Source of the DNA: Escherichia coli
GTDB taxonomy: Bacteria > Pseudomonadota > Gammaproteobacteria > Enterobacterales > Enterobacteriaceae
Assembly (NCBI RefSeq): GCF_046105845.1
Contig: NZ_CP151004.1
DNA length: 64,000 nucleotides
Strand: one strand, 5' to 3'
Each line of letters begins with the position of its first letter. Position 1 is the first letter of the stretch. Made by a program: the position numbers and the translations under genes. The notes beneath the pieces were generated by a model. The model had not been told where the DNA came from. It ran no database searches and was given only the letters and a program-made list of their open reading frames with translations. This document shows, in pieces, positions 3,532 to 45,485 of this stretch.

Positions 3532-4009
3532 AGTATTCTTATTTCCCTTCTTTTAGATCTGGTTTGTTAAATGCCAGCTTGCAGATTCATCGTTCCATCG
3601 CCAGTAATATATTCAAGGGGAAATTGCTATTTTTCTTAAAATATTAAGCATAACCCTTATTTTATAGCGAATATTCCTAAAGACATAAATGAATGAAAAA
3701 GAGTTTTAATAGAGTTCTTTTTTAGCAATTAATGCTATTCTTTGTTAAATATGATGATGGTAATTTTCTTATTGAAAGAAACATTTTTCTTATTAAGCAA
3801 CAATAACTCATGGTTCATTTTTAAATAAAATAAGAACTATGCAATTTTTAATCTATCAATTCGAAAGTATTAGCAAATGAGCCAAATTGACACCTTCCCA
3901 CCTCCAACCAACACTCAATACAGACCTCTGACAACTTAATAAGTTTCATTTTTAACGTCTGATGACTCATCTCTTTCGTGGCTGTATTGTTTGTATATGG
4001 AGCGTTTAT

Positions 4010-7000
4010 ATGAATAGAATCTATCGCGTGATATGGAATTGCACCCTACAGGTATTTCAGGCCTGCTCGGAATTAACTCGCAGGGTAGGTAAAACATCAA
4101 CGGTTAATTTGCGTAAATCCTCTGGACTGACAACGAAATTCAGTAGATTGACGCTGGGTGTTTTGCTGGCACTAAGCGGTTCAGCGTCTGGTGCGAGTCT
4201 GGAAGTTGATAATGATCAGATTATCAATATTGATACTGATGTTGCTTATGATGCCTACCTGGTTGGGTGGTATGGCACTGGAGTGCTTAATATTTTGGCT
4301 GGCGGTAATGCCTCCTTAACCACTATTACTACCAGCGTCATTGGTGGTAATGAGAACTCGAAGGGCACCGTTAATGTTTTGGGTGGCACCTGGCGATTGT
4401 ATGATAGCGGAAATAATGCAAGGCCTTTAAATGTGGGCCAATCCGGAACGGGGATGCTGAATATTAAACAGAAGGGGCACGTTGACGGAGGCTATTTAAG
4501 ATTAGGTACTCAAGCTGTAGGCGTCGGGATGGTTAATGTTGAGGGAGAGGACTCGGTTCTGACGACCGAATTATTCGAAATAGGGAGTTACGGTACAGGC
4601 TCATTAAATATTACGGATAAGGGTTACGTCACGAGTTCAATCGTCGCCATTGTAGGATATCAGGCGAACAGCACTGGTAAGGTTGTCGTTGAAAAGGGTG
4701 GCGAGTGGCTAATAAAAAATAATGATTCCTCAATTGAATTTCAAATTGGTAATCAAGGAACTGGGGAGGCGACTATTCGCGAGGGTGGACTGATTACGGC
4801 TGAAAATACGATTATCGGTGGCAATGCCACCGGTATCGGAACCCTGAATGTGCAGGATCAAGACTCTGTCATCACGGTACGCAGAGTCTATAATGGATAT
4901 TTCGGTAATGGCACAGTCAATATTTCCAATAATGGACTGATTAATAATAAAGAATATTCATTGGTGGGCGTTCAGGACGGGTCCCACGGTGTCGTCAACG
5001 TGACCAATAAAGGGCATTGGAATTTCCTCGGAACGGGCGAAGCTTTCCGCTATATCTATATCGGTGATGCTGGCGACGGTGAACTTAATGTCTCTAGTGA
5101 AGGCAAAGTAGATTCGGGAATTATCACTGCGGGGATGAAAGAAACAGGCACAGGCAACATTACTATTAAGGATAAGAACTCCATTATCACTAATCTCGGA
5201 ACTAATCTTGGTTATGACGGCCACGGCGAAATGAATATCAGTAATGAGGGGCTTGTTATCAGCAACGGAGGAAGCTCACTCGGTTATGGAGAAACCGGCG
5301 TCGGGAAGGTTAGCATCACCACGGGGGGGATGTGGGAGGTCAATAAGAATGTCTATACCACCATTGGTGTTGCGGGCGTCGGAAACCTCAATATCAGCGA
5401 TGGCGGTAAGTTCGTATCGCAAAATATTACTTTTTTGGGCGATAAAGCAAGCGGTATCGGCACACTGAACCTGATGGATGCGACATCATCGTTCGATACT
5501 GTAGGTATCAATGTCGGTAATTTTGGTAGCGGCATCGTAAATGTCAGTAATGGTGCCACCCTTAATTCAACGGGCTATGGATTTATCGGAGGAAATGCCT
5601 CCGGTAAGGGGATAGTTAATATTTCAACGGATAGTCTCTGGAATTTAAAAACGTCATCTACTAACGCCCAATTGTTACAGGTCGGTGTATTAGGCACGGG
5701 TGAACTGAATATTAGCACCGGAGGTATAGTTAAAGCGCGTGATACACAAATAGCTCTCAATGACAAAAGTAAGGGCGACGTGCGGGTGGATGGGCAGAAC
5801 TCTCTTCTTGAAACATTCAATATGAACGTAGGGACGACTGGCACAGGTACGTTAACCCTGACGAATAACGGTACGCTGAATGTCGAAGGTGGAGAAGTTT
5901 ACTTAGGTGTTTTTGCGCCTGCTGTAGGAACGCTAAACATTGGTGCTGCTCACGGTGAGGCGGCGGCAGATGCCGGATTTATCACCAATGCGACGAAAGT
6001 GGAGTTTGGTCTTGGCGAAGGCGTTTTTGTCTTTAATCATACCAATAACAGTGATGCCGGCTACCAGGTCGATATGCTGATTACGGGTGACGATAAAGAC
6101 GGAAAAGTGATGCATGATGCAGGCCATACGGTGTTCAATGCAGGGAATACTTATAGCGGTAAAACGTTGGTCAATGGCGGCCTCCTGACCATTGCGTCAC
6201 ATACGGCAGATGGGGTAACGGGCATGGGTTCGAGTGAAGTAACCATTGCAAACCCCGGTACGCTCGACATTCTCGCATCAACGAACAGTGCAGGAGATTA
6301 CACGCTGACCAATGCGCTCAAAGGCGATGGCTTGATGCGAGTGCAGCTGTCATCCTCCGACAAAATGTTTGGCTTTACCCATGCAACAGGAACTGAATTC
6401 GCCGGTGTTGCCCAACTGAAAGACAGTACCTTCACACTGGAACGCGACAACACCGCTGCGCTTACTCACGCGATGCTTCAGTCTGACAGTGAAAATACCA
6501 CATCGGTAAAAGTGGGAGAGCAATCCATTGGTGGACTAGCCATGAATGGCGGTACGCTCACTTTCGATACGGATATACCTGCTGCGACGCTCGCGGAGGG
6601 ATATATCAGCGTCGATACGCTGGTTGTCGGCGCGGGTGACTACACCTGGAAAGGCCGTAACTATCAGGTAAACGGGACGGGCGACGTGCTTATCGACGTG
6701 CCTAAACCGTGGAATGATCCCATGGCGAATAACCCTCTGACGACGCTCAATTTGCTGGAACACGATGATAGTCATGTCGGCGTTCAACTGGTGAAGGCGC
6801 AAACGGTTATTGGGTCGGGTGGCTCATTAACGTTACGTGATTTACAGGGCGACGAGGTGGAAGCGGACAAAACGTTACATATTGCACAAAACGGGACAGT
6901 GGTCGCCGAGGGTGATTATGGATTCCGCCTCACGACCGCTCCTGGTGATGGTTTGTATGTTAACTATGGGCTGAAAGCGCTGAACATCCATGGTGGGCAA

Positions 7001-9430
7001 AAGCTGACGTTAGCCGAACATGGCGGAGCCTATGGCGCAACGGCCGATATGTCGGCAAAAATCGGTGGTGAAGGGGATCTGGCAATCAATACGGTGCGAC
7101 AGGTTTCGCTTTCTAACGGTCAGAACGACTATCAGGGGGCAACCTACGTTCAGATGGGGACATTACGTACCGATGCGGATGGCGCTCTGGGCAATACTCG
7201 GGAACTGAACATCAGCAACGCGGCCATCGTCGATCTTAATGGATCGGAGCAGACGGTAGAGACATTCACCGGGCTGATGGGTTCGACTATTTTGTTCAAA
7301 GAAGGTTCGCTGACGGTGAATAAAGGTGGGATCAGTCAGGGCGAACTGACAGGTGGCGGAAACCTGAATGTTACAGGGGGAACACTGGCTATCGAGGGGC
7401 TTAATGCACGCTACAATGCGTTAACCAGCATTAGCCCAAATGCGGAAGTCAGCCTCGACAATACGCAGGGGTTAGGCAGAGGAAATATTGCCAATGACGG
7501 TCTGTTAACGCTAAAAAACGTGACCGGCAAACTGCGCAATAGCATAAGCGGTAAAGGTATCGTGAGCGCAACCGCCAGCACAGACGTAGAGCTGGATGGC
7601 GATAATAGCCGCTTTGTGGGGCAATTCAACATCGATGCAGGCAGCGCGCTCAGCGTCAACGAGCAGAAAAACCTGGGTGATGCTTCCGTTATCAATAATG
7701 GCCTGCTCACCATCGCCACTGAGCGTAGCTGGGCGATGACGCACAGTATCACCGGTAGCGGCGATGTGACAAAACTGGGGACCGGGATCCTGACTCTTAA
7801 CAACGATTCCGCGGCGTATCAGGGTACGACGGATATCGTGGGTGGTGAAATTGCTTTCGGTTCCGACTCTGCCATTAATATGGCAAGTCAGCACATTAAT
7901 ATCCATAACAGCGGTGTGATGTCGGGAAATGTCACCACTGCAGGTGATGTGAACGTTATGCCAGGGGGGACACTGCGTGTCGCTAAAACCACTGTCGGCG
8001 GTAACCTGGAGAATGGTGGCACGGTTCAAATGAACAGCGAAGGGGGGAAACCGGGGAATGTACTGACCGTTAACGGCAACTATACCGGAAACAATGGCCT
8101 GATGACGTTCAACGCGACGCTGGGTGGCGATAATTCGCCCACGGATAAAATGAACGTGAAAGGCGATACCCAAGGGAATACTCGCGTTCGGGTTGATAAC
8201 ATTGGCGGCGTCGGTGCACAAACGGTCAACGGTATTGAACTCATTGAGGTTGGCGGTAATTCTGCAGGTAAATTCGCGCTGACCACCGGAACTGTCGAAG
8301 CTGGGGCTTACGTCTACACGCTGGCTAAAGGGAAGGGGAATGACGAGAAAAACTGGTATCTGACCAGTAAATGGGACGGCGTAACGCCAGCGGATACACC
8401 CGATCCCATCAATAATCCCCCTGTTGTGGATCCGGAAGGCCCATCAGTTTATCGCCCGGAGGCCGGAAGCTATATCAGCAACATTGCCGCAGCCAACTCG
8501 CTGTTTAGCCATCGCTTACACGACCGTCTGGGTGAGCCGCAGTATACAGATTCACTGCATTCTCAGGGTTCGGCAAGCAGTATGTGGATGCGTCATGTCG
8601 GGGGGCACGAACGTTTCAGGACCGGTGACGGCCAGCTAAATATTCAGGCTAACCGCTATGTATTGCAGCTAGGAGGCGATTTGGCGCAGTGGAGTAGCAA
8701 CGCGCAGGATCGCTGGCATCTCGGCATCATGGCAGGCTATGCCAATCAGCACAGTAATACTCAGAGTAATCATGTGGGTTATAAATCGGATGGGCGCATC
8801 AGCGGTTACAGCGCAGGACTGTACGCGACCTGGTATCAGAACGATGCGAATAAGACCGGCGCTTATGTTGACAGCTGGGCGCTGTATAACTGGTTTGATA
8901 ACAGCGTCAGTTCCGATAACCGTTCTGCTGACGACTATGATTCTCGCGGTGTGACGGCCTCTGTTGAGGGGGGGTATACCTTTGAAGCGGGAACATTTAG
9001 CGGCAGCGAAGGGACGCTGAATACCTGGTACGTCCAGCCACAGGTACAAATCACCTGGATGGGTGTGAAAGATTCTGACCATACCCGGAAAGACGGAACA
9101 CGCATTGAAACGGAAGGCGACGGAAACGTGCAAACGCGACTTGGGGTGAAAACCTACCTGAACAGCCATCACCAGCGTGACGATGGTAAACAGCGTGAGT
9201 TCCAGCCTTACATTGAAGCGAACTGGATCAACAACAGCAAAGTCTACGCCGTGAAGATGAATGGTCAAACCGTAAGCCGTGATGGTGCGCGTAATCTCGG
9301 TGAAGTACGTACCGGGGTTGAGGCGAAAGTAAATAACAACCTTAGCCTGTGGGGGAATGTCGGTGTGCAACTAGGTGATAAAGGCTATAGCGATACTCAG
9401 GGCATGCTGGGAGTGAAATATATCTGGTAA
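4010..9430 (+). CDS. ydeK: Large type Va autotransporter adhesin (full length, 1806 aa) with extended signal peptide region, repetitive beta-helix passenger and C-terminal beta-barrel
   Basis: Start at MNRIYRVIWNCTLQVF (ESPR-like) with GGAG RBS 7 nt upstream; many GTGxLNI/GNASG passenger repeats; C-terminus ends ...LGVKYIW (aromatic terminal residue). Locus position between lsrK and hipB matches ydeK/yneO, which I recall as a pseudogene in K-12. Confidence 0.85.
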   Translation: MNRIYRVIWNCTLQVFQACSELTRRVGKTSTVNLRKSSGLTTKFSRLTLGVLLALSGSASGASLEVDNDQIINIDTDVAYDAYLVGWYGTGVLNILAGGNASLTTITTSVIGGNENSKGTVNVLGGTWRLYDSGNNARPLNVGQSGTGMLNIKQKGHVDGGYLRLGTQAVGVGMVNVEGEDSVLTTELFEIGSYGTGSLNITDKGYVTSSIVAIVGYQANSTGKVVVEKGGEWLIKNNDSSIEFQIGNQGTGEATIREGGLITAENTIIGGNATGIGTLNVQDQDSVITVRRVYNGYFGNGTVNISNNGLINNKEYSLVGVQDGSHGVVNVTNKGHWNFLGTGEAFRYIYIGDAGDGELNVSSEGKVDSGIITAGMKETGTGNITIKDKNSIITNLGTNLGYDGHGEMNISNEGLVISNGGSSLGYGETGVGKVSITTGGMWEVNKNVYTTIGVAGVGNLNISDGGKFVSQNITFLGDKASGIGTLNLMDATSSFDTVGINVGNFGSGIVNVSNGATLNSTGYGFIGGNASGKGIVNISTDSLWNLKTSSTNAQLLQVGVLGTGELNISTGGIVKARDTQIALNDKSKGDVRVDGQNSLLETFNMNVGTTGTGTLTLTNNGTLNVEGGEVYLGVFAPAVGTLNIGAAHGEAAADAGFITNATKVEFGLGEGVFVFNHTNNSDAGYQVDMLITGDDKDGKVMHDAGHTVFNAGNTYSGKTLVNGGLLTIASHTADGVTGMGSSEVTIANPGTLDILASTNSAGDYTLTNALKGDGLMRVQLSSSDKMFGFTHATGTEFAGVAQLKDSTFTLERDNTAALTHAMLQSDSENTTSVKVGEQSIGGLAMNGGTLTFDTDIPAATLAEGYISVDTLVVGAGDYTWKGRNYQVNGTGDVLIDVPKPWNDPMANNPLTTLNLLEHDDSHVGVQLVKAQTVIGSGGSLTLRDLQGDEVEADKTLHIAQNGTVVAEGDYGFRLTTAPGDGLYVNYGLKALNIHGGQKLTLAEHGGAYGATADMSAKIGGEGDLAINTVRQVSLSNGQNDYQGATYVQMGTLRTDADGALGNTRELNISNAAIVDLNGSEQTVETFTGLMGSTILFKEGSLTVNKGGISQGELTGGGNLNVTGGTLAIEGLNARYNALTSISPNAEVSLDNTQGLGRGNIANDGLLTLKNVTGKLRNSISGKGIVSATASTDVELDGDNSRFVGQFNIDAGSALSVNEQKNLGDASVINNGLLTIATERSWAMTHSITGSGDVTKLGTGILTLNNDSAAYQGTTDIVGGEIAFGSDSAINMASQHINIHNSGVMSGNVTTAGDVNVMPGGTLRVAKTTVGGNLENGGTVQMNSEGGKPGNVLTVNGNYTGNNGLMTFNATLGGDNSPTDKMNVKGDTQGNTRVRVDNIGGVGAQTVNGIELIEVGGNSAGKFALTTGTVEAGAYVYTLAKGKGNDEKNWYLTSKWDGVTPADTPDPINNPPVVDPEGPSVYRPEAGSYISNIAAANSLFSHRLHDRLGEPQYTDSLHSQGSASSMWMRHVGGHERFRTGDGQLNIQANRYVLQLGGDLAQWSSNAQDRWHLGIMAGYANQHSNTQSNHVGYKSDGRISGYSAGLYATWYQNDANKTGAYVDSWALYNWFDNSVSSDNRSADDYDSRGVTASVEGGYTFEAGTFSGSEGTLNTWYVQPQVQITWMGVKDSDHTRKDGTRIETEGDGNVQTRLGVKTYLNSHHQRDDGKQREFQPYIEANWINNSKVYAVKMNGQTVSRDGARNLGEVRTGVEAKVNNNLSLWGNVGVQLGDKGYSDTQGMLGVKYIW

Positions 9431-9437
9431 ACCTTAT

Positions 9438-9472
9438 AAGCCGCATGTCGAAGATGGCATGCGGCTTAATAT
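9438..9472 (+). terminator. Terminator-like hairpin after autotransporter gene
   Basis: AAGCCGCATG-loop-CATGCGGCTT inverted repeat directly after stop; weak U tract. Confidence 0.45.
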
Positions 9473-9506
9473 TGCCGACTTCAAACGACTTTTAAATCCT
9501 CCTTTT

Positions 9507-9620
9507 TATCCGCGATCGCGGATATCACAGCGTTTATCCCGTAGAGCGGATAAAATGTGTTTCCTGATTGACTTTATCCCCACTAAAGGATAAAACTGAT
9601 AATATCCCCTTGAGCGGATA
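9507..9620 (+). promoter_or_regulatory. hipBA promoter with four HipB operator sites TATCC-N8-GGATA
   Basis: Four exact TATCC-N8-GGATA palindromes at 9507-9524, 9535-9552, 9575-9592, 9603-9620, immediately upstream of hipB. Confidence 0.9.
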
Positions 9621-9641
9621 AATATGCTGTGGACGTATGAC

Positions 9642-9908
9642 ATGATGAGCTTTCAGAAGATCTATAGCCCAACGCAATTAGCGAATGCAATGAAACTGGT
9701 TCGTCAGCAAAATGGCTGGACGCAGAGCGAGCTGGCGAAAAAAATCGGTATTAAGCAGGCGACAATTTCCAATTTCGAAAACAACCCTGACAATACCACG
9801 CTCACGACATTTTTTAAGATTTTACAGTCGCTTGAACTCTCAATGACGCTATGCGACACGAAAAATGCCTCGCCAGAATCAACAGAACAGCAAGATCTGG
9901 AGTGGTAA
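9642..9908 (+). CDS. hipB: HipB antitoxin (Xre-family HTH)
   Basis: 88-aa product MMSFQKIYSPTQLANAMKLVRQQNGWTQSELAKKIGIKQATISNFENNPDNTTL...; matches K-12 HipB; stop overlaps hipA start (TAATG). Confidence 0.95.
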   Translation: MMSFQKIYSPTQLANAMKLVRQQNGWTQSELAKKIGIKQATISNFENNPDNTTLTTFFKILQSLELSMTLCDTKNASPESTEQQDLEW

Positions 9909-11230
9909 TGCCTAAACTTGTCACTTGGATGAACAACCAGCGGGTAGGCGAGTTAACGAAGTTAGCCAATGGCGCGCACACCTTTAAGTATGCACCGGAG
10001 TGGTTAGCTAACCGTTATGCCAGACCGTTGTCACTTTCGCTGCCATTGCAGAGGGGGAATATCACCTCTGATGCCGTATTTAACTTCTTCGATAACCTGT
10101 TACCCGATAGCCCGATTGTACGTGACCGGATCGTTAAACGTTATCATGCCAAATCCAGACAACCGTTTGATTTATTGTCAGAAATAGGGCGAGACAGCGT
10201 TGGTGCCGTGACGTTAATACCCGAAGACGAAACCGTAACGCATCCGATAATGGCATGGGAAAAGCTTACTGAAGCCAGACTTGAAGAAGTATTAACGGCT
10301 TATAAAGCAGATATCCCTCTGGGCATGATTAGAGAAGAAAATGACTTTCGCATCTCGGTTGCTGGCGCGCAGGAGAAGACAGCGCTGCTCAGAATAGGCA
10401 ATGACTGGTGCATTCCGAAAGGAATAACGCCGACGACGCACATCATTAAATTACCGATTGGCGAAATCAGGCAGCCCAATGCGACGCTCGATCTCAGCCA
10501 AAGCGTTGATAATGAGTATTACTGTCTGCTGCTGGCGAAAGAACTTGGGTTGAATGTTCCGGACGCAGAAATCATTAAAGCGGGAAGGGTGCGCGCGTTA
10601 GCGGTCGAACGTTTTGACAGGCGTTGGAATGCTGAGCGAACGGTTTTACTTCGCTTGCCACAGGAGGATATGTGTCAGACATTCGGTTTACCTTTATCGG
10701 TGAAATATGAATCAGATGGAGGCCCAGGCATCGCGCGGATCATGGCTTTTTTGATGGGGTCCAGCGAGGCGCTGAAAGATCGCTATGATTTTATGAAGTT
10801 TCAGGTGTTCCAGTGGTTGATTGGCGCAACGGATGGCCATGCAAAAAACTTCTCCGTATTTATTCAGGCTGGCGGCAGTTATCGACTCACGCCATTTTAC
10901 GACATCATTTCAGCATTTCCGGTATTGGGTGGCGCAGGAATACACATCAGCGATCTCAAACTGGCAATGGGGCTTAACGCATCCAAAGGCAAAAAAACGG
11001 CAATCGATAAAATTTATCCGCGACATTTTCTGGCGACAGCAAAGGTGCTGAAATTTCCGGAAGTGCAGATGCATGAAATCCTGAGTGACTTTGCCAGAAT
11101 GATTCCGGCAGCACTGGATAACGTGAAGACTTCATTACCGACAGATTTTCCGGAGAACGTGGTGACGGCAGTTGAAACAAATGTGTTGAGGTTGCACCGT
11201 CGGTTAAGCCGAGAATACGGTATTAAGTAA
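9908..11230 (+). CDS. hipA: HipA serine/threonine kinase toxin
   Basis: 440-aa product MPKLVTWMNNQRVGELTKLANGAHTFKYAPEWL...; matches K-12 HipA. Residue 22 is Gly (not the hipA7 G22S allele). Confidence 0.95.
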   Translation: MPKLVTWMNNQRVGELTKLANGAHTFKYAPEWLANRYARPLSLSLPLQRGNITSDAVFNFFDNLLPDSPIVRDRIVKRYHAKSRQPFDLLSEIGRDSVGAVTLIPEDETVTHPIMAWEKLTEARLEEVLTAYKADIPLGMIREENDFRISVAGAQEKTALLRIGNDWCIPKGITPTTHIIKLPIGEIRQPNATLDLSQSVDNEYYCLLLAKELGLNVPDAEIIKAGRVRALAVERFDRRWNAERTVLLRLPQEDMCQTFGLPLSVKYESDGGPGIARIMAFLMGSSEALKDRYDFMKFQVFQWLIGATDGHAKNFSVFIQAGGSYRLTPFYDIISAFPVLGGAGIHISDLKLAMGLNASKGKKTAIDKIYPRHFLATAKVLKFPEVQMHEILSDFARMIPAALDNVKTSLPTDFPENVVTAVETNVLRLHRRLSREYGIK

Positions 11231-11510
11231 GATATGGGGTTTGGCTGTTGTTAATGAGCAGGACAATCATGACCGCCAACGACTGGATTCTCCCTTGGTT
11301 TATGTTGGTGCGCATAATGTATATTATGTTAAATTGAATTTGAGTGATACGAAGCGATTTTCCGGTCGTCGTTATTACTTCAGGGTTCCAGAACATAAAG
11401 CCTCTCCTCTTTCATAATTGGCCTGTGCATACCGGATATAGGCTGGCTGGTATGCAGGTTTGCCGTTTGCCGCATCTTCCCTGCGTTGAAGAGTCAGGCT
11501 GGCAAACCGC

Positions 11511-11765
11511 GTGCAAATGAACACCCCCTCTTTCCATCAACACTTCAGACAGCTTGCGGGAATGAGTCCACTCCGGTATCAGAAATGGCTACGCCTCAAT
11601 GAAGCCAGGCGACTGATGCTGAATGAACATTACGATGTCACCACTGCAGCCTATGCTGTCGGTTACGAAAGCTTATCCCATTTCAGTCGGGAATATTCGC
11701 GGATGTTTGGAGAGTCACCTAAGAGAGATATTACCGGGTTAAGAAAGTCTGTCGGTCAGCTTTAA
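11511..11765 (+). pseudogene. yneL: AraC-family regulator C-terminal HTH fragment (remnant)
   Basis: 84-aa ORF containing only an AraC-type HTH tail (…LRYQKWLRLNEARRLMLNEHYDVTTAAYAVGYESLSHFSREYSRMFGESP…); no N-terminal domain; position matches K-12 yneL pseudogene. Confidence 0.7.
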
Positions 11766-12199
11766 TAAACCCTGCACTTATCTGTTTAGAGCAATTCCGT
11801 GTTAGTTACACCAGTCAAACATTAACCATAGCTAATGTTTTATAGCCATATAAACCATTGGCCGCTCTTGACCTTTCCTGACACTTCCCTTGTTCGCAAT
11901 AATATTCTGTTTAGTCGCTGTTTATAAATAACATGCATAATGAAATCGTAATGTTATTTAGCGACATAAAATGTCTTTGCAAATACTCTCTACAACAAGT
12001 GCTGCAATAAACTTGTTGTGATTAGGTGTCCTTGTAATTTAAAGATATTATCGTTCTTCGTGAAATGTAATAACCCTGGAAACTATATTCTCAGGGCAAT
12101 ATCCCATCAAGAATGATTCTTGTTTTATAAGCAATAACAGAATTACTTAATTGTTAACTTTCTTTATTCAGCTACTTAAATATAAATTTTGGAGAATTA

Positions 12200-12762
12200 T
12201 GAAACTCAAACATGTCGGTATGATTGTCGTTTCTGTGTTGGCGATGTCGTCTGCTGCGGTAAGCGCAGCCGAGGGTGATGAATCAGTAACGACCACTGTT
12301 AATGGCGGTGTTATTCATTTTAAAGGTGAAGTGGTAAATGCCGCTTGTGCGATTGATTCAGAATCAATGAACCAAACGGTTGAGCTGGGTCAGGTCCGTT
12401 CTTCTCGTCTGGCTAAAGCGGGTGACCTCAGCTCCGCCGTTGGCTTCAATATCAAGCTGAATGATTGTGATACCAATGTTTCCAGTAATGCAGCTGTTGC
12501 ATTCCTGGGTACTACTGTCACCAGTAATGACGATACCTTAGCGCTGCAGAGTTCAGCGGCAGGCTCTGCCCAAAATGTCGGTATTCAAATTTTGGACCGT
12601 ACGGGGGAGGTATTAATACTTGATGGTGCCACTTTTAGCGCTAAAACCGACTTGATTGATGGCACGAATATACTGCCATTCCAGGCTCGTTATATTGCTC
12701 TCGGGCAGTCAGTAGCTGGTACTGCAAACGCTGATGCGACCTTCAAAGTTCAATATCTATAA
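12200..12762 (+). CDS. Fimbrial major subunit (type 1/F9-like pilin)
   Basis: Start at [23 protein letters not shown] (signal peptide); Cys pair and C-terminal ...TFKVQYL beta-strand typical of chaperone-usher pilins; first gene of a six-gene cluster. Confidence 0.85.
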
Positions 12763-12803
12763 TTCAATCTTAAGGTGGCTATACGTCATCTGAAATTGAA
12801 ACA

Positions 12804-12832
12804 GGGTGTGTGTGGCATGGCTACGCACACCC
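12804..12832 (+). other. 12-bp stem-loop in the pilin-chaperone intergenic region (possible intra-operon attenuator / mRNA stabiliser)
   Basis: GGGTGTGTGTGG-CATGG-CTACGCACACCC read directly; no U tract follows. Confidence 0.35.
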
Positions 12833-13122
12833 GAGCAATTCACCAATGTGAATCTCATTATTAATGAGGAGTGGTTTGTATTTGGAGCACTATGAAAAAT
12901 CACATAATATCTAAACGTTCAATAAACAACAGTAGTTAAACTTACTGTTATTTAAAATATTTACTTTGTAGCAAGGTTTTCCTGTTAAAAGAGAACCAAC
13001 ATTTATTACAAACGCATTAAGTCTGGAAACCCAGCGAGTCGCCGATGTATTAGCAACATTTACCGATTGTCTGATGTAACGGTTTCCCCGCTTATCCTCT
13101 TAACACATGGAGAATGCATCAG

Positions 13123-13833
13123 ATGCAAACTACGCGTACCCCCTACTCTGTTTCCTTTATGGCGACAGTGTTACTTTTATTGGTCTTTGCTTGCCATAGC
13201 ACCATTGCCAACGCAGCTGTCGCACTGGGTGCGACGCGGGTAATTTATCCGGCAAACCAGAAACAGGTTTTATTGCCTGTCACGAATAATGATCCTGCCA
13301 GTGTCTATCTCATTCAGTCATGGATAGAAAATGCAGGTGACCAAAAAGACACCCAGTTTGTCATTACCCCACCGCTTTTTTCCATGCAAGGTAAAAAAGA
13401 GAATACGCTGCGGATAATCAACGCCACTAATCATCAGTTACCAGGCGACCGTGAAAGCCTGTTCTGGGTGAATGTTAAAGCTATTCCTGCTATGGAAAAA
13501 GACCAGAAGAATGAGAATACATTACAGCTGGCAATTATTAGCCGCATAAAAATGTTTTATCGCCCCACGAACCTGGCAATGGCACCTGAAGAAGCGCCTG
13601 CAATGCTTCGGTTTCGTCGCAGCGGTAGCAAACTCACTCTTATTAATCCAACGCCCTACTTCATTACCGTAACAAATATGAAAGCAGGAAATAGCAATCT
13701 CCCAAACACCATGGTGCCGCCAAAAGGTGAAGTATCGGTGGATATCCCGCATGCTGCAACCGGGGATATCAGTTTTCAGACGATCAATGATTACGGTGCA
13801 TTAACTCCGCGTATTAAGGCAACCATGCAGTAA
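13123..13833 (+). CDS. Periplasmic fimbrial chaperone (PapD/FimC family)
   Basis: Signal peptide then ...RVIYPANQKQVLLPVTNNDPASVYLIQSWIE...; typical chaperone N-terminal motif. Start could be 13114 or 13123. Confidence 0.85.
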   Translation: MQTTRTPYSVSFMATVLLLLVFACHSTIANAAVALGATRVIYPANQKQVLLPVTNNDPASVYLIQSWIENAGDQKDTQFVITPPLFSMQGKKENTLRIINATNHQLPGDRESLFWVNVKAIPAMEKDQKNENTLQLAIISRIKMFYRPTNLAMAPEEAPAMLRFRRSGSKLTLINPTPYFITVTNMKAGNSNLPNTMVPPKGEVSVDIPHAATGDISFQTINDYGALTPRIKATMQ

Positions 13834-13874
13834 GCCAGTGACCTAATTAATAATAAACTCAATCGGAATTAAAA

Positions 13875-16526
13875 ATGACAGCCTTTCGTGCCGCATTTAA
13901 GGCATATCGTATGCATCAGGTGTTACTACTGCCTCGCTTTGCACGGCTTACCATTGCCCTTGGCTTAGCAACTGCGGTATTTCCCGTTGACGCAGAGTAT
14001 TATTTTAATCCACGGTTTTTAAGCAATGATCTTGCTGAATCTGTCGATTTATCCGCCTTTACTAAGGGACGCGAGGCACCACCTGGTACATATCGGGTCG
14101 ACATTTATTTGAACGACGAATTTATGACTAGTCGGGATATTACTTTTATTGCAGATGATAATAACGCAGATCTCATCCCATGCCTGAGTACAGATCTTCT
14201 TGTCAGTCTTGGCATAAAAAAATCAGCGTTATTAGACAATAAAGAACATTCGGCAGAAAAACATGTGCCGGACAACAGCACATGCACACCACTTCAGGAT
14301 CGTTTGGCTGACGCATCATCTGAGTTTGATGTTGGTCAGCAACATCTGTCACTCTCCGTTCCGCAAATTTATGTTGGCAGAATGGCTCGCGGCTATGTTT
14401 CTCCGGATCTGTGGGAAGAAGGAATAAATGCTGGGCTACTAAACTATAGTTTTAATGGTAATTCTATTAATAATCATAGTAACCATAATGCAGGAAAATC
14501 CAACTATGCATATTTGAATTTACAGAGTGGCATCAACATTGGTAGTTGGCGACTGCGTGATAACTCAACGTGGAGTTATAACAGTGGGAGTAGCAATTCA
14601 TCTGACAGCAATAAATGGCAGCATATCAATACGTCGGCTGAACGTGACATTATTCCCTTACGCTCACGGTTAACGGTGGGTGATAGTTATACCGATGGCG
14701 ATATTTTTGATAGTGTGAACTTTCGTGGCCTCAAAATAAATTCAACAGAAGCGATGTTGCCCGATAGCCAACATGGTTTCGCTCCGGTGATTCATGGTAT
14801 TGCCCGTGGCACAGCACAAGTGAGTGTAAAACAGAATGGATACGATGTTTATCAGACTACTGTTCCACCCGGCCCTTTTACTATTGATGATATCAACTCT
14901 GCGGCCAATGGTGGTGATCTGCAAGTAACCATAAAAGAGGCAGACGGCAGTATTCAGACATTATATGTTCCTTATTCGTCTGTTCCGGTTCTCCAACGTG
15001 CTGGATATACGCGTTATGCGCTTGCCATGGGGGAATATCGTAGTGGAAATAACCTGCAAAGCTCCCCCAAGTTCATACAAGGTAGCTTGATGCATGGACT
15101 GGAAGGAAACTGGACACCTTATGGCGGAATGCAAATTGCAGAAGATTATCAGGCCTTCAACCTTGGTATTGGTAAAGATTTAGGACTTTTTGGTGCCTTT
15201 TCTTTCGATATCACGCAGGCCAATACGACACTTGCAGATGGCACCCGTCACAGCGGGCAATCGATTAAATCCGTCTACAGCAAATCCTTCTACCAGACGG
15301 GAACCAATATCCAGGTCGCAGGATATCGCTATTCTACGCAAGGTTTTTATAACTTATCCGACAGTGCCTACAGTCGAATGAGTGGTTACACCGTCAAGCC
15401 TCCTACCGGAGACAGCAATGAGCAGACACAATTTATTGATTATTTTAATCTGTTCTACAGTAAGCGTGGTCAGGAACAAATAAGCATCTCTCAGCAGCTT
15501 GGAAATTACGGTACGACATTTTTCAGTGCCAGTCGCCAAAGTTACTGGAACACGTCACGCAGCGACCAGCAAATATCATTTGGATTAAATGTGCCGTTTG
15601 GCGATATTACAACTTCGCTGAATTACAGCTATTCCAATAATATATGGCAAAACGATCGGGATCATTTACTTGCTTTTACGCTTAATGTTCCCTTCAGTCA
15701 TTGGATGCGTACAGACAGTCAGTCGGCATTTCGTAATTCAAACGCCAGTTACAGTATGTCAAACGATTTGAAAGGCGGCATGACCAATCTATCAGGGGTT
15801 TATGGCACTCTGCTGCCGGATAATAACCTGAATTATAGCGTTCAGGTAGGTAACACCCACGGAGGTAATACATCGTCTGCCACCAGTGGTTACAGTTCTC
15901 TTAATTATCGTGGAGCTTACGGTAATACTAATGTCGGTTACAGTCGGAGTGGGGACAGCAGCCAGATTTATTACGGAATGAGTGGTGGGATTATTGCTCA
16001 TGCTGATGGCATCACCTTTGGTCAGCCGCTGGGCGACACAATGGTTCTGGTTAAGGCTCCTGGCGCTGATAATGTCAAAATAGAGAACCAGACCGGAATT
16101 CATACCGACTGGCGTGGCTATGCCATATTACCATTTGCGACAGAATATAGAGAAAATCGTGTCGCTCTTAACGCGAATTCCCTTGCAGATAATGTTGAAC
16201 TGGATGAAACCGTGGTCACTGTCATCCCAACTCACGGTGCTATTGCCAGAGCAACATTTAATGCACAAATCGGCGGGAAAGTATTAATGACGTTGAAGTA
16301 CGGTAATAAGAGCGTTCCATTCGGTGCAATTGTCACTCACGGAGAGAATAAAAATGGCAGCATTGTCGCGGAAAACGGTCAGGTTTATCTGACTGGACTT
16401 CCACGGTCAGGGAAATTACAGGTTTCATGGGGCAATGATAAAAACTCAAACTGTATAGTCGATTACAAGCTTCCTGAAGTCACTCCTGGAACCTTACTGA
16501 ACCAGCAGACAGCAATCTGTCGCTAA
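13875..16526 (+). CDS. ydeT: Fimbrial outer-membrane usher (full length, 883 aa)
   Basis: Length and sequence features of PapC/FimD ushers (…YFNPRFL…, C-terminal Cys pair …NSNCIVDYKLPEV…TAICR). Position corresponds to ydeT, which I recall as truncated in K-12. Confidence 0.85.
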   Translation: MTAFRAAFKAYRMHQVLLLPRFARLTIALGLATAVFPVDAEYYFNPRFLSNDLAESVDLSAFTKGREAPPGTYRVDIYLNDEFMTSRDITFIADDNNADLIPCLSTDLLVSLGIKKSALLDNKEHSAEKHVPDNSTCTPLQDRLADASSEFDVGQQHLSLSVPQIYVGRMARGYVSPDLWEEGINAGLLNYSFNGNSINNHSNHNAGKSNYAYLNLQSGINIGSWRLRDNSTWSYNSGSSNSSDSNKWQHINTSAERDIIPLRSRLTVGDSYTDGDIFDSVNFRGLKINSTEAMLPDSQHGFAPVIHGIARGTAQVSVKQNGYDVYQTTVPPGPFTIDDINSAANGGDLQVTIKEADGSIQTLYVPYSSVPVLQRAGYTRYALAMGEYRSGNNLQSSPKFIQGSLMHGLEGNWTPYGGMQIAEDYQAFNLGIGKDLGLFGAFSFDITQANTTLADGTRHSGQSIKSVYSKSFYQTGTNIQVAGYRYSTQGFYNLSDSAYSRMSGYTVKPPTGDSNEQTQFIDYFNLFYSKRGQEQISISQQLGNYGTTFFSASRQSYWNTSRSDQQISFGLNVPFGDITTSLNYSYSNNIWQNDRDHLLAFTLNVPFSHWMRTDSQSAFRNSNASYSMSNDLKGGMTNLSGVYGTLLPDNNLNYSVQVGNTHGGNTSSATSGYSSLNYRGAYGNTNVGYSRSGDSSQIYYGMSGGIIAHADGITFGQPLGDTMVLVKAPGADNVKIENQTGIHTDWRGYAILPFATEYRENRVALNANSLADNVELDETVVTVIPTHGAIARATFNAQIGGKVLMTLKYGNKSVPFGAIVTHGENKNGSIVAENGQVYLTGLPRSGKLQVSWGNDKNSNCIVDYKLPEVTPGTLLNQQTAICR

Positions 16527-16539
16527 GGAACAATAGATT

Positions 16540-17070
16540 ATGAAATACAATAACGTTATTTTCCTCGGTTTATGTCTGGGGTTAACCACCTATTCTGCTT
16601 TATCCGCAGATAGCGTTATTAAAATTAGCGGGCGCGTCCTCGATTATGGCTGCACAGTCTCATCGGATTCGCTTAATTTTACCGTAGATCTCCAAAAAAA
16701 CAGTGCCAGACAATTTCCAACGACCGGTAGCACAAGTCCAGCCGTCCCTTTTCAGATTACGTTAAGTGAATGCAGCAAAGGGACAACGGGGGTTCGAGTT
16801 GCATTTAACGGGATTGAGGATGCAGAAAATAATACTCTGTTGAAACTGGATGAAGGAAGCAATACAGCCTCCGGTTTGGGTATAGAAATACTGGACGGAA
16901 ATATGCGTCCGGTGAAATTGAATGACCTTCATGCCGGGATGCAGTGGATCCCACTGGTACCAGAACAGAACAATATTTTGCCTTACTCCGCTCGTCTGAA
17001 GTCAACTCAGAAGTCCGTCAATCCGGGACTGGTGAGGGCTTCGGCAACCTTTACCCTTGAATTTCAATAA
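16540..17070 (+). CDS. ydeS: Fimbrial minor subunit
   Basis: 176-aa pilin-like protein with signal peptide and Cys pair; gene order matches K-12 ydeS. Confidence 0.8.
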   Translation: MKYNNVIFLGLCLGLTTYSALSADSVIKISGRVLDYGCTVSSDSLNFTVDLQKNSARQFPTTGSTSPAVPFQITLSECSKGTTGVRVAFNGIEDAENNTLLKLDEGSNTASGLGIEILDGNMRPVKLNDLHAGMQWIPLVPEQNNILPYSARLKSTQKSVNPGLVRASATFTLEFQ

Positions 17071-17082
17071 TCAGAGTCAGAT

Positions 17083-17586
17083 ATGAAAAGACTTCACAAG
17101 AGGTTCCTGTTAGCTACGTTTTGCGCGTTATTCACAGCAACTCTCCAGGCCGCCGATGTCACTATCACTGTTAATGGTCGGGTAGTCGCTAAACCCTGCA
17201 CTATTCAAACCAAAGAAGCTAACGTTAATCTCGGGGATCTTTATACACGCAATCTGCAACAACCTGGCTCTGCATCTGGCTGGCACAATATTACTTTGTC
17301 ATTAACCGATTGTCCGGTTGAAACAAGTGCAGTGACGGCAATCGTGACAGGTTCAACTGACAATACGGGTTATTACAAAAATGAAGGTAGTGCCGAAAAT
17401 ATTCAGATAGAGCTGAGGGACGACCAGGATGCTGCGTTAAAAAATGGCGATAGCAAAACGGTTATTGTTGATGAGATCACTCGTAATGCACAGTTTCCAC
17501 TTAAGGCAAGAGCTATCACGGTGAATGGAAACGCAAGCCAGGGAACGATCGAGGCTCTAATCAATGTGATCTACACCTGGCAATAA
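17083..17586 (+). CDS. ydeR: Fimbrial minor subunit
   Basis: 167-aa pilin-like protein with signal peptide; gene order matches K-12 ydeR. Confidence 0.8.
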   Translation: MKRLHKRFLLATFCALFTATLQAADVTITVNGRVVAKPCTIQTKEANVNLGDLYTRNLQQPGSASGWHNITLSLTDCPVETSAVTAIVTGSTDNTGYYKNEGSAENIQIELRDDQDAALKNGDSKTVIVDEITRNAQFPLKARAITVNGNASQGTIEALINVIYTWQ

Positions 17587-17645
17587 CGTCGATTCGATTT
17601 TCTTAGCCTCCTTTTTAAATCAATTTTTTAACCTTAGGATATATC

Positions 17646-18560
17646 ATGGGTAAAACAATAAGTATGAAGCTTCTGTTCGGTATTTATCTTCTATTAATGG
17701 CAGGCAAAGTTTTTGCCTTCAGTTGTAATGTCGATGGCGGGTCAAGTATTGGAGCAGGTACAACCTCTGTTTATGTTAATCTCGACCCTGTAATACAACC
17801 GGGCCAGAATCTGGTTGTAGACTTGTCTCAGCACATAAGTTGCTGGAATGATTACGGCGGCTGGTACGACACTGATCATATAAACCTGGTACAAGGCTCA
17901 GCTTTCGCAGGCTCTCTACAGTCATATAAAGGATCGCTGTACTGGAATAATGTGACCTACCCCTTCCCGTTGACGACAAATACTAATGTATTAGATATTG
18001 GTGATAAGACACCGATGCCATTACCGTTAAAACTCTATATTACCCCAGTCGGTGCGGCCGGTGGAGTTGTCATAAAAGCCGGGGAAGTTATTGCCCGTAT
18101 TCATATGTATAAAATTGCCACGTTAGGAAGCGGAAATCCGCGTAATTTTACGTGGAATATTATTTCAAATAACAGTGTTGTTATGCCAACAGGCGGCTGC
18201 ACCGTTGATAGTCGTAATGTCAACGTGAATCTCCCGGACTTTCCTGGAAGCGCAGAAATACCCCTTGGCGTATATTGCTCAAGTGAACAAAAGCTCTCAT
18301 TTTATCTTTCGGGTGCTACCACTGACAGTGCCAGACAAGTGTTTGCTAACACAGCACCAGATGCAACAAAAGCATCGGGAGTGGGTGTCTCTCTGATGCG
18401 TAATGGAAAAATACTGGCTACGGGAGAAAACGTCTCCCTGGGGACAGTAAATAAAAGCAAAGTACCTCTGGGTTTAAGCGCAACCTATGGACAAACAGGA
18501 AACAAGGTTGCAGCCGGAACCGTCCAGTCAGTCATTGGTGTCACTTTTATCTATGAATAA
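17646..18560 (+). CDS. ydeQ: Fimbrial tip adhesin (FimH-like two-domain adhesin)
   Basis: 304-aa, signal peptide, N-terminal lectin-like domain + C-terminal pilin domain; last gene of fimbrial operon. Confidence 0.8.
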
Positions 18561-18632
18561 TTGTGATTTTGACATTGGTCTATGCGCTCCATTCACGAAA
18601 ATTGCGCGGATATTTATTTTGTGAAGGCTATT

Positions 18633-18650
18633 ATCCTACATCTGTAAGAA
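18633..18650. promoter_or_regulatory. EvgA box (ATCCTACA-TC-TGTAAGAA) upstream of ydeP
   Basis: Matches the 18-bp EvgA inverted-repeat consensus TTCYTACA-N2-TGTARGAA; ydeP is a known direct EvgA target. Confidence 0.7.
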
Positions 18651-18892
18651 AATCCGCGCACAATTGAAGCCAGAGTCTTATTTTTTATATTGAAAAATAT
18701 GTTAATTTAAACACTATGAGAGATGATGCTTAATTTATCGTATTTAATCTTTTGTTTAACGATAATAGATTAAAATAGAAAGAGAGTAGTCCCCTACTCT
18801 TATATATCCATGTTGACGATAATCCCTTTGTATATACTGTGCATCATCGCTATTACAAATCCTAATAATTCATTTCCACACAGGATAAGCAG

Positions 18893-21172
18893 ATGAAGAA
18901 AAAAATTGAATCCTACCAGGGAGCTGCCGGTGGTTGGGGTGCTGTTAAATCCGTAGCGAATGCAGTACGTAAGCAGATGGATATACGCCAGGATGTTATT
19001 GCCATGTTTGACATGAATAAGCCAGAGGGCTTTGACTGTCCGGGTTGTGCATGGCCAGATCCTAAGCACAGTGCGTCATTCGACATTTGTGAAAACGGCG
19101 CAAAAGCAATCGCCTGGGAAGTCACGGATAAGCAGGTAAACGCCTCTTTCTTTGCTGAGAATACGGTTCAATCATTACTTACCTGGGGAGACCACGAGCT
19201 CGAGGCTGCGGGGCGTCTCACCCAGCCTTTGAAATATGATGCCGTCAGCGACTGTTACAAGCCATTAAGCTGGCAACAAGCTTTCGACGAAATTGGCGAA
19301 CGCCTTCAAAGCTATAGTGATCCCAATCAGGTTGAATTCTATACTTCGGGCCGCACTTCCAATGAAGCTGCCTTTCTTTATCAGCTTTTTGCCCGTGAAT
19401 ACGGGAGCAATAACTTCCCCGACTGCTCCAACATGTGCCATGAACCGACCAGTGTGGGTTTGGCAGCGAGTATCGGTGTAGGTAAAGGGACCGTGTTGCT
19501 GGAAGACTTTGAGAAATGCGATTTAGTCATTTGCATTGGGCATAACCCTGGTACAAACCACCCTCGCATGTTGACTTCGTTGCGCGCTTTAGTGAAACGG
19601 GGAGCGAAAATGATCGCCATCAATCCTCTACAGGAACGTGGCCTGGAGCGATTTACCGCACCGCAAAACCCGTTTGAAATGCTGACGAACTCTGAGACTC
19701 AGTTGGCCAGTGCCTACTATAACGTGCGCATTGGTGGTGATATGGCGTTGCTCAAGGGGATGATGCGCCTGTTAATTGAGCGCGATGATGCTGCAAGCGC
19801 CGCAGGTCGGCCCTCATTGCTGGATGACGAATTTATTCAAACGCATACCGTCGGCTTTGACGAGCTACGCCGTGACGTGCTCAATTCCGAGTGGAAAGAT
19901 ATCGAACGTATTTCTGGATTAAGTCAGACTCAAATCGCCGAACTGGCTGATGCATATGCCGCTGCCGAACGCACCATTATCTGTTACGGAATGGGGATCA
20001 CTCAGCACGAACATGGTACCCAGAATGTACAGCAACTGGTCAATCTGCTGTTGATGAAAGGTAACATTGGCAAGCCTGGTGCGGGTATCTGCCCACTACG
20101 AGGTCACTCTAATGTACAGGGCGACCGAACCGTCGGTATCACCGAGAAACCGTCTGCAGAGTTTCTGGCTCGCCTGGGTGAGCGCTATGGTTTCACCCCA
20201 CCTCATGCACCTGGACATGCTGCAATTGCCAGCATGCAAGCAATATGTACGGGGCAGGCTCGAGCATTGATCTGCATGGGGGGCAACTTTGCACTGGCAA
20301 TGCCAGATCGGGAAGCGAGCGCTGTACCGTTAACGCAATTAGATTTGGCGGTACACGTAGCCACTAAGCTTAACCGCTCTCATCTGCTGACCGCACGGCA
20401 TAGCTATATTCTGCCGGTTCTTGGGCGTAGCGAGATTGACATGCAAAAAAGCGGTGCGCAGGCGGTAACCGTTGAGGATTCAATGTCGATGATTCATGCC
20501 TCGCGTGGCGTGTTAAAACCCGCCGGTGTAATGCTGAAATCAGAGTGTGCAGTGGTCGCGGGAATCGCGCAGGCAGCACTACCCCAGAGCGTGGTAGCCT
20601 GGGAGTATCTGGTGGAAGATTATGATCGCATTCGCAATGACATTGAAGCTGTGCTGCCAGAGTTCGCCGACTATAACCAGCGCATCCGTCATCCCGGTGG
20701 TTTTCACCTGATAAATGCAGCTGCTGAAAGGCGCTGGATGACGCCGTCAGGTAAGGCTAATTTCATTACCAGTAAAGGGCTGTTAGAAGATCCCTCTTCA
20801 GCGTTTAACAGTAAGCTAGTCATGGCGACAGTACGCAGTCACGATCAGTACAACACGACGATTTATGGTATGGATGATCGCTATCGAGGGGTATTCGGTC
20901 AACGAGATGTGGTCTTTATGAGTGCTAAACAAGCTAAAATTTGCCGTGTAAAAAACGGCGAAAGAGTTAATCTTATTGCGCTTACGCCAGACGGTAAGCG
21001 AAGCTCACGCCGCATGGATAGATTAAAAGTGGTCATTTACCCTATGGCTGACCGCTCACTGGTGACCTATTTTCCAGAATCGAATCACATGCTAACACTT
21101 GATAACCACGATCCATTGAGTGGCATTCCTGGCTATAAAAGTATTCCGGTTGAATTAGAACCATCAAATTAA
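18893..21172 (+). CDS. ydeP: Acid-resistance molybdopterin oxidoreductase YdeP (formate-dehydrogenase-like)
   Basis: 759-aa [31 protein letters not shown]...; matches K-12 YdeP. Confidence 0.95.
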
Positions 21173-44462: not shown

Positions 44463-45485
44463 GTGACCTTCTGGAGTATTTTACGCCAACGCTGCTGGGG
44501 GCTGGTGCTCGTGGTGGCGGGCGTCTGTGTGATTACGTTTATTATCTCGCATCTTATCCCCGGCGATCCGGCGCGGTTACTGGCGGGTGACCGCGCCAGC
44601 GATGCTATCGTGGATAATATTCGCCAGCAACTGGGACTGGACCAGCCACTGTACGTACAGTTTTACCGCTACGTCAGCGACCTGTTTCAGGGTGACCTGG
44701 GAACATCCATTCGTACCGGGCGTCCGGTGCTGGAAGAGTTGCGCATATTTTTCCCGGCGACGCTGGAACTGGCTTTTTGTGCCCTGCTGCTGGCACTCCT
44801 GATTGGCATCCCGCTGGGCATACTCTCTGCAGTCTGGCGAAATCGCTGGCTGGATCATCTGGTGCGAATAATGGCCATTACCGGAATCTCCACACCTGCG
44901 TTCTGGCTTGGGCTGGGCGTCATTGTGCTGTTTTATGGTCATCTGCAAATTCTTCCCGGCGGCGGAAGGCTTGATGACTGGCTGGATCCACCAACGCACG
45001 TTACCGGCTTTTATCTGCTCGATGCGCTGCTTGAAGGCAACGGTGAAGTCTTCTTCAATGCGCTGCAACATCTCATCTTACCGGCATTAACGCTGGCGTT
45101 CGTTCACCTGGGAATTGTCGCTCGCCAGATCCGCTCAGCGATGCTGGAACAATTGAGTGAAGACTACATTCGTACCGCCCGGGCCAGCGGCTTGCCCGGC
45201 TGGTATATCGTTTTATGTTATGCGCTACCCAATGCGTTGATCCCCTCGATTACCGTATTGGGGCTGGCGCTGGGCGATTTGTTGTATGGCGCAGTGCTCA
45301 CCGAAACCGTTTTTGCCTGGCCCGGAATGGGGGCATGGGTAGTGACATCAATACAGGCGCTCGACTTCCCTGCGGTGATGGGATTTGCCGTCGTGGTTTC
45401 GTTTGCTTATGTGCTGGTGAACCTGGTGGTGGATTTGCTCTATTTGTGGATTGATCCGCGTATCGGACGTGGAGGTGGTGAATGA
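44463..45485 (+). CDS. ddpB: Dipeptide ABC transporter permease
   Basis: 340-aa, GTG start, DppB-like permease. Confidence 0.9.
   Translation: MTFWSILRQRCWGLVLVVAGVCVITFIISHLIPGDPARLLAGDRASDAIVDNIRQQLGLDQPLYVQFYRYVSDLFQGDLGTSIRTGRPVLEELRIFFPATLELAFCALLLALLIGIPLGILSAVWRNRWLDHLVRIMAITGISTPAFWLGLGVIVLFYGHLQILPGGGRLDDWLDPPTHVTGFYLLDALLEGNGEVFFNALQHLILPALTLAFVHLGIVARQIRSAMLEQLSEDYIRTARASGLPGWYIVLCYALPNALIPSITVLGLALGDLLYGAVLTETVFAWPGMGAWVVTSIQALDFPAVMGFAVVVSFAYVLVNLVVDLLYLWIDPRIGRGGGE

Follow-up and report, generated by a model that had tools for sequence, protein, structure and literature searches.

Within the 64,000-nt stretch of Escherichia coli DNA analysed here (contig NZ_CP151004.1 of assembly GCF_046105845.1; hereafter the window, whose numbering is used throughout), positions 11912-18560 almost certainly represent an intact F9 (Fml/Yde) operon, a type-1-like chaperone-usher pilus operon, at its usual chromosomal site between hipBA and ydeP. 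Six chaperone-usher genes occur within 12199-18560, all in the same direction and free of internal stop codons according to both the list of open reading frames (ORFs) and alignment. Their lengths equal those of the copies considered as intact by the Prokaryotic Genome Annotation Pipeline (PGAP) in VCSW7, PEC1021 and LF82, with 97-100% amino acid identity, and neither frameshift nor premature stop was detected in any of the six. An initial annotation of this DNA had proposed a complete, co-directional six-gene operon with a FimH-like adhesin, and this is borne out by the intact ORFs, the full sets of domains and the agreement in length with annotated alleles; gene count and coordinates were also right, the corrections concerning the start codons of the pilin and chaperone genes. 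The operon, its leader, the intergenic elements and the upstream yneL fragment described below are all located on the + strand.

The six genes, their promoter and their chromosomal site

The first gene (12199-12762) encodes FmlA, the FimA-like major subunit of F9, a product of 187 residues recognised by Pfam Fimbrial (E = 5.9e-31) and by NCBIfam FimA (174 bits, above cutoff) and 100% identical to the annotated copies of VCSW7 and PEC1021. Its start is the ATG at 12199, and a longer ORF of 203 residues opening at TTG 12151 was rejected as the gene. The periplasmic chaperone, FimC-like and 236 residues long, is encoded by 13123-13833 (PapD_N, 7.9e-40; PapD_C, 3.5e-12) with 98.7-99.2% identity to annotated copies; the start at 13114 given by the ORF list and retained in the initial annotation is three codons too long, 13123 being the correct one. 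It is followed by the gene for a full-length YdeT, the outer-membrane usher (13875-16526, 883 residues), which displays PapC_N, Usher and PapC_C and has the same length as annotated intact ushers, with 97.6-98.9% identity. A two-domain PapD-like chaperone together with an usher carrying these three domains (Pfam E-values from 7.9e-40 to 8.4e-200) is the combination that characterises chaperone-usher systems. Two small subunit genes come next, one for the FimF-like adaptor YdeS (16540-17070, 176 residues; NCBIfam FimF, 239 bits, above cutoff; 96.6-100% identity to annotated copies) and one for the FimG-like minor subunit YdeR (17083-17586, 167 residues; NCBIfam FimG, 255 bits, above cutoff; 97-99.4% identity). 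Overall, Pfam domains suit the roles of all six products, and NCBIfam and Pfam together return the expected family for the first five; the family of the sixth, the adhesin, comes from Pfam, its NCBIfam match not being meaningful.

This last gene (17646-18560) encodes the two-domain tip adhesin FmlH/YdeQ, whose 304 residues comprise a signal peptide (1-24), a lectin domain (25-184) and a pilin domain extending to the C-terminus. The product matches Pfam FimH_man-bind with an E-value of 6.3e-78 and aligns over its full length with FimH structures (E of ca. 1e-79 to 1e-81), and its residues 25-184 match the lectin domain of FmlH crystal structures (PDB 6AOW, 5LNE and others) with 100% identity (E = 1.7e-107). 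Because of this identity, the residues by which FmlH contacts its ligand, F1, Y46, D53, K132, N140 and R142 in mature numbering (PMC5866590), are all retained. The ligands reported for the identical domain are galactose (Gal), N-acetylgalactosamine (GalNAc) and the Thomsen-Friedenreich (TF) antigen (PMC5866590), to which published work on F9/FmlH adds Gal-beta1-3-GlcNAc glycans and plant xyloglucan. The glycan specificity of this adhesin is thus already settled experimentally for an identical sequence, and crystal structures, ligands and inhibitors have all been published for an adhesin with this very lectin domain. When close relatives of the adhesin were sought in a set with a single genome for each species, the only match was on a short contig with no upstream region. 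This contig, JARKOR010000108.1, belongs to a metagenome bin labelled Candidatus Nanosynbacter and carries a ydeQ/FmlH gene that is 97% identical to the present one; it is probably an E. coli contig that was mis-binned.

The promoter of the operon was located at 11912-11948, with a -35 element TAGTCG (11912-11917), an 18-bp spacer, a -10 element CATAAT (11936-11941) and a start at G 11948. In CFT073, rapid amplification of cDNA 5' ends (5'-RACE) had identified the same two hexamers separated by 18 bp and a start at a G located 251 nt before the pilin ATG; motifs, spacing and the position of G 11948 (12199 minus 251) all agree with this description. The resulting 5' leader, as read from the sequence, covers 251 nt (11948-12198) and is AT-rich. 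The whole of 11766-12198 contains 32% G+C versus 44-47% for the genes, a composition that we read as typical of a target of the nucleoid protein H-NS. In CFT073, the DNA bound by H-NS is a 251-bp f9 promoter region, and H-NS binding to the promoter region represses the operon at 37°C, with pili appearing at 20°C, in CFT073 as well as in enterohaemorrhagic E. coli (EHEC). Two further controls have been described, namely a temperature-dependent translational control of F9 in EHEC and a positive effect of Fur on fmlA in CFT073.

The operon lies between hipB (9642-9908) and hipA (9908-11230) on its 5' side and ydeP, which begins at 18893, on its 3' side, as deduced from the ORFs and from the annotation of near-identical loci, gene names being confirmed in MG1655. 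This location, with hipBA in 5' and ydeP in 3', is the one expected of F9 operons, and the ORFs and domains agree with the definition of the operon by Wurpel 2014. When 10500-19500 was compared by megablast with 5,426 complete E. coli genomes, matches were obtained in all but one (5,425), with at least 80% of the query covered in 3,569. The spacer between the pilin and chaperone genes, which is removed by the deletion of the K-12 type, is found in 3,570 of the 5,426 genomes (66%). The undeleted form is therefore carried by 3,569-3,570 genomes, ca. one third of E. coli genomes having lost F9; the published prevalence of the intact operon is 60%.

The condition of the locus in K-12 had been described in the initial annotation as a truncated usher accompanied by ydeSRQ, and the annotations of MG1655 and TG1 confirm it, since both have only a truncated ydeT, ydeS, ydeR and ydeQ together with the yneL pseudogene. 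When compared to the window, K-12 lacks the 3,279 bp of 12021-15299 as well as 11431-11555, and its usher remnant corresponds to the part from 15300 onwards. A second surface-protein gene is, like F9, kept here and lost in K-12: the window holds at 3962-9430 (+) an intact ORF of 1,822 residues that belongs to the ECSE_1600 family of autotransporters and whose K-12 version is the frameshifted pseudogene yneO.

Two observations relate to the origin of the DNA. In the two stretches of the window that were tested against the 5,426 complete genomes, the best nucleotide identity was only 98.3-98.9%, and the closest match to the F9 region was that of the soil isolate VCSW7. Given these low values, the source lineage has no close representative among those complete genomes.

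The hairpin in the 3' untranslated region of the pilin gene

Pilin and chaperone genes are separated by 360 nt (12763-13122; 37.5% G+C), in which alignment distinguishes a variable 5' third, surrounding a hairpin, from a conserved 3' two-thirds. The hairpin (12804-12832) is located in the 3' untranslated region (3' UTR) of the pilin gene, 42 nt past its stop codon, and consists of a GC-rich stem of 13 pairs, two of them G-U, closed by a 3-nt loop (GGGUGUGUGUGGC-AUG-GCUACGCACACCC). With a predicted energy of -23.8 kcal/mol (z = -4.9 relative to shuffled sequences), it is the most stable of 2,554 windows of 40 nt folded over 11200-18900 (mean -5.5, standard deviation 3.2) and ranks second among the + strand sites of the entire 64 kb. 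It was recovered by sliding-window folding, a scan for inverted repeats with exact seeds having missed it because of its G-U pairs and of a distance limit. Other folds of comparable stability on the + strand occur at 44560-44610 (-24.4 kcal/mol) and at 9430-9470 (-22.5 kcal/mol); the latter comes right after the stop codon of the autotransporter gene and is likely its terminator.

In an alignment of ten diverse strains, the hairpin is unchanged in nine, and in the tenth a 2-nt slip in a GT run still allows a 9-bp stem to form. Variation within the spacer is greatest in the 40 nt located 3' of it, where one strain has a 27-nt deletion. A hairpin that stays almost unchanged amid drifting flanks suggests selection. 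The most likely role, which we infer from these features only, is that of a stabiliser of the RNA 3' end, which would obstruct 3' exonucleases, or of a processing determinant, either of which would favour the pilin mRNA. Such an element would let the pilin mRNA outlive the distal message.

The initial annotation had noticed a stem-loop in this place, which is confirmed with 13 pairs, and had compared its position to that of the attenuators by which other fimbrial operons adjust stoichiometry. A Rho-independent attenuator that ends part of the transcripts, thereby setting the ratio of pilin to assembly proteins, would fit a very stable GC-rich stem found in the classical position 42 nt after the stop codon and conserved while its flanks drift. 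A terminator of this type nonetheless combines a GC-rich stem with an immediate U-tract, whereas the hairpin is followed by GAGCAAUUCACC, and the terminator scan made no call there. Since the U-tract is absent, the hairpin is not a canonical intrinsic terminator. In addition, the paralogous site of the fim operon is a 3' UTR from which RNase E processing produces a small RNA and not a simple terminator. Rho-independent termination at the hairpin is thus unlikely, and attenuation as the means of setting the pilin ratio has perhaps a minor chance of being correct.

The fim site raises another possibility, in which the hairpin and its AU-rich 5' flank would be freed as a stable small RNA acting in trans, the F9 counterpart of FimR2. 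FimR2 is generated by RNase E, which cuts an unpaired stretch and a stem-loop out of the 3' UTR of fimA; it is annotated in MG1655 as a 35-nt RNA located directly 3' of fimA. The F9 hairpin occupies the equivalent position (FimR2 is annotated 10 nt past fimA), shares with FimR2 the succession of a single-stranded part and a stem-loop within the 3' UTR of a major pilin gene, and forms a conserved island inside a variable spacer of an operon that is paralogous to fim. Both 3' UTRs further contain ACGUCAU and, 3' of it, a hairpin with CACCC at the end of its 3' arm. These two motifs are the only sequence in common with FimR2, the two operons resemble each other little in sequence past the coding region, and a shared 7-mer is expected by chance in ca. 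7% of cases by our estimate for windows of that size. The loops also differ: that of FimR2 is GGGA, and its mutation abolished the capability to sequester CsrA, while the F9 loop is AUG and has no GGA. Neither the F9 locus nor the fimA-fimI region, FimR2 site included, matched any relevant family in scans against Rfam; a match to OxyS, with 22 bits against a threshold of 75, was attributed to chance, and Rfam thus offered no model of FimR2 for comparison. Release of an RNA of this kind from the F9 transcript is rather improbable. An extended version, in which the processed RNA would couple F9 expression to other cellular programmes at low temperature, is a still more speculative proposal; if true, it would indicate that 3' UTR small RNAs are common to type-1-like pilus operons and not peculiar to fim. 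A role in protecting or processing the 3' end of the pilin mRNA is retained as the preferred reading of the hairpin, and a strikingly stable and conserved 3' UTR hairpin where the paralogous fim operon makes FimR2 is a by-product of the present analysis.

Other elements were examined in the same spacer. A 15-codon ORF at 12893-12940 (+), MKNHIISKRSINNSS, located in the conserved part of the spacer with GGAG 6 nt ahead of it, was evaluated as a possible leader peptide and rejected; in Lstone01 a 1-nt insertion disrupts the frame, and the ORF is probably not coding. A second inverted repeat, AT-rich with 12-nt arms and an 8-nt loop, occurs at 12923-12954 (+), ahead of a T-rich stretch; one-sided changes in two strains keep the pairing (A-U to G-U). 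This repeat may serve as a weak terminator or bind a protein. Finally, a decayed fimI was rejected, since neither tblastn with the K-12 Fim proteins nor blastn with the fim operon found fimI or a relic of it in the 360 nt with anything better than an E-value of ca. 0.7.

The yneL fragment upstream of the operon

Upstream of the promoter lies yneL (11499-11765), a pseudogene that corresponds to the last 88 of ca. 304 codons of an AraC-family regulator of the AraC_N/YqhC-like type (Pfam HTH_18, 3.9e-22). Homology begins at 11499, four codons ahead of the GTG at 11511 that was taken as the start in the initial annotation. The equivalent gene is qualified by PGAP as incomplete and missing its N-terminus, and is annotated as a pseudogene in K-12. 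Only ca. 29% of the protein is retained: the AraC_N domain is gone and the first helices of the DNA-binding domain, corresponding to the first helix-turn-helix (HTH), are cut. A functional AraC/XylS regulator has an N-terminal domain for sensing or dimerisation and a complete two-HTH DNA-binding domain of ca. 100 residues, whereas in yneL the former is missing and the latter incomplete. The fragment occurs in 4,245 of the 5,426 complete E. coli genomes.

Word-indexed protein searches with the 88 residues returned short fragments only, and full-length relatives were obtained by an exhaustive search of representative proteins and by DNA searches. These relatives are ca. 300-320 residues long, with 304-310 for those in which AraC_N and HTH_18 were both recognised, and align with yneL at approximately residues 219-301. 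At the nucleotide level, homology to intact genes has a sharp 5' limit at 11498/9 and extends to 11766-11777; identity amounts to 85.7% for a copy from Klebsiella and to 89.6% for one from E. coli. The E. coli protein WP_000622442.1 (304 residues), with which yneL shares 80 of its 88 residues, is encoded, with at least 99% identity, by 87 of the 94 genomes in which the N-terminal part occurs. In the one genome whose context was inspected, its gene belongs to an island next to intS and a tRNA-Arg gene (argW) and is divergent from a gene for an iron-containing alcohol dehydrogenase. Since the regulator has 31% identity to YqhC (E = 6e-39) and the dehydrogenase 35% to YqhD (E = 1e-63), the pair reproduces the yqhC-yqhD arrangement. 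An ADH_N gene is, in the same way, the divergent neighbour of a full-length relative from a metagenome, and the intact Klebsiella copy is located among sugar-metabolism genes with no fimbriae nearby. In both YqhC, an AraC_N-type activator of yqhD/dkgA, and WP_000622442.1 (ca. 304-318 residues), yneL aligns with the last 88 residues and differs by the loss of the AraC_N domain and of the start of the first HTH.

The region between hipA and yneL differs among strains. In PEC1021 an oxidoreductase island joins the common backbone at 11328, and in PD23 (NZ_CP074052.1) an island rich in integrase and insertion sequence (IS) elements joins it at ca. 11325-11328. In the latter, a full-length AraC_N-type regulator is located at the right end of the island, in tandem with the yneL fragment and 480 bp upstream of it (8983-10645 in the numbering of the PD23 stretch). 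Seven genomes hold an allele of this full-length regulator with 90-95% identity, the context having been inspected in PD23. In LF82, the DNA upstream of 11786 is entirely different from that of the window, with a short-chain dehydrogenase/reductase (SDR) gene and a LysR pseudogene, and F9 is intact. As two islands are found at the same junction in PEC1021 and PD23, the hipA-yneL spacer looks like a hot spot for island insertion or recombination, and the best interpretation of yneL is that of a scar left by island cargo.

The remnant had been recognised in the initial annotation as an AraC-type HTH fragment, which stands, and had been regarded as probably the decayed cognate regulator of the pilus, which is not supported in view of its YqhC-like relatives and of the F9 operon of LF82. 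A cis-encoded F9 regulator had also been loosely suggested in published EHEC work for ECs2114/Z2199. In its favour, yneL is located 433 bp upstream of the pilin gene and on the same strand, most E. coli have it together with the locus, and a full-length homologue is present in seven genomes, being located in PD23 1.2 kb upstream of the pilin gene. Other fimbriae are also known to have regulators of the AraC family. The intact relatives are nevertheless AraC_N/YqhC paralogues located by alcohol-dehydrogenase or sugar-metabolism genes and have a fimbrial neighbour in PD23 only, where the full-length copy is cargo of an IS-flanked island that coexists with the fragment and, with 88.6% identity, is not its parent. 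The homology with intact genes stops at 11766-11777, before the match with LF82 begins at 11786; LF82 and other B2 strains possess an intact F9 but no yneL, and in PEC1021 the oxidoreductase island lies directly upstream of the fragment. Moreover, Wurpel 2014 found no evidence of a link between f9 and its upstream regulators, the regulator identified there being H-NS, and a reporter for ECs2114, the yneL equivalent of Sakai, was published as nearly silent, with minimal expression. Intact orthologues consistently linked to, or shown to control, a fimbrial operon are what would be expected of a cognate regulator, and yneL does not have them; such a past role is very unlikely.

Altogether, yneL appears to be the non-functional scar of a YqhC-like regulator, of the aldehyde-stress type, left in an island-insertion hot spot and foreign to the pilus system, which is more likely than its being a lost pilus regulator. 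This makes the origin of the "putative regulator" yneL/ECs2114 clearer, as a YqhC-like scar of a mobile island, and argues against effort on yneL as a regulator of F9.

The predicted pilus and its relation to known systems

Following the established chaperone-usher mechanism, the F9 subunits would be exported via Sec and captured by the FimC-like chaperone through donor-strand complementation. The usher would then polymerise them by donor-strand exchange, with FmlH at the tip followed by the FimG-like and FimF-like subunits and then by the FmlA rod. According to published work on F9, FmlH is predicted to bind terminal Gal/GalNAc glycans (TF antigen, Gal-beta1-3-GlcNAc, plant xyloglucan), and H-NS would silence the operon at 37°C, with expression at ca. 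20°C.

Three points weigh against this picture of an ordinary F9 operon with a hairpin of functional importance. Intact ORFs are no proof that this particular strain makes pili. The exact set of alleles is absent from the complete E. coli genomes searched, in which the best nucleotide identity over the whole locus is 98.8%. Finally, the role of the hairpin is argued from position, stability and conservation, and a helix that does not vary in an informative manner among the ten strains provides no covariation evidence. That the operon would be cryptic or non-functional despite its intact ORFs and heading to the state found in K-12, as the loss of F9 in ca. one third of E. coli genomes and its silencing by H-NS under standard laboratory conditions might suggest, is most improbable given six proteins that are 97-100% identical to widely conserved alleles and free of frameshifts, a lectin domain that is that of a functionally characterised protein, an intact promoter, and published evidence that F9 pili from such loci are made at 20°C and bind glycans.

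The locus belongs to the F9/Fml fimbriae and does not constitute a variant of them, being another set of alleles; every defining feature that could be tested was found. These F9/Fml (Yde) fimbriae are known as c1931-c1936 in CFT073, fml in UTI89 and the ECs2113 cluster in EHEC Sakai, with ydeQRST as the K-12 remnant. They have in common with the present locus the site between hipBA and ydeP, the six genes and their order, the sequence of the promoter and start site, and proteins that are 97-100% identical. The differences are limited to allelic changes and to the 5' flank, which is of the hipA-yneL type and not of the B2/LF82 type. Earlier publications describe the operon, its prevalence, the "hypothetical regulators" of its variable 5' flank and its control by H-NS, so that this textbook F9/Fml pilus operon matters little for discovery.

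The type 1 fimbriae (fimAICDFGH) are encoded by a paralogous operon that corresponds to F9 gene for gene, fimI excepted, with gene order and subunit roles alike. Amino acid identities between F9 and K-12 products amount to 64% for FimA, 60% for FimC, 56% for FimD, 45% for FimF, 57% for FimG and 47% for FimH. No fimB or fimE was found upstream of F9 within the window. The adhesins are expected to differ in specificity, since published work on the identical lectin domain indicates that the F9 adhesin binds Gal/GalNAc and not mannose as in type 1 fimbriae. Both operons have a hairpin-containing element directly 3' of the major pilin gene, in each case an unpaired stretch followed by a stem-loop. 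Sequence likeness between the two is slight and the F9 stem is far longer, with 13 bp and -23.8 kcal/mol versus 5 bp and -9.2 kcal/mol for FimR2; the loop of the putative F9 element is devoid of GGA.

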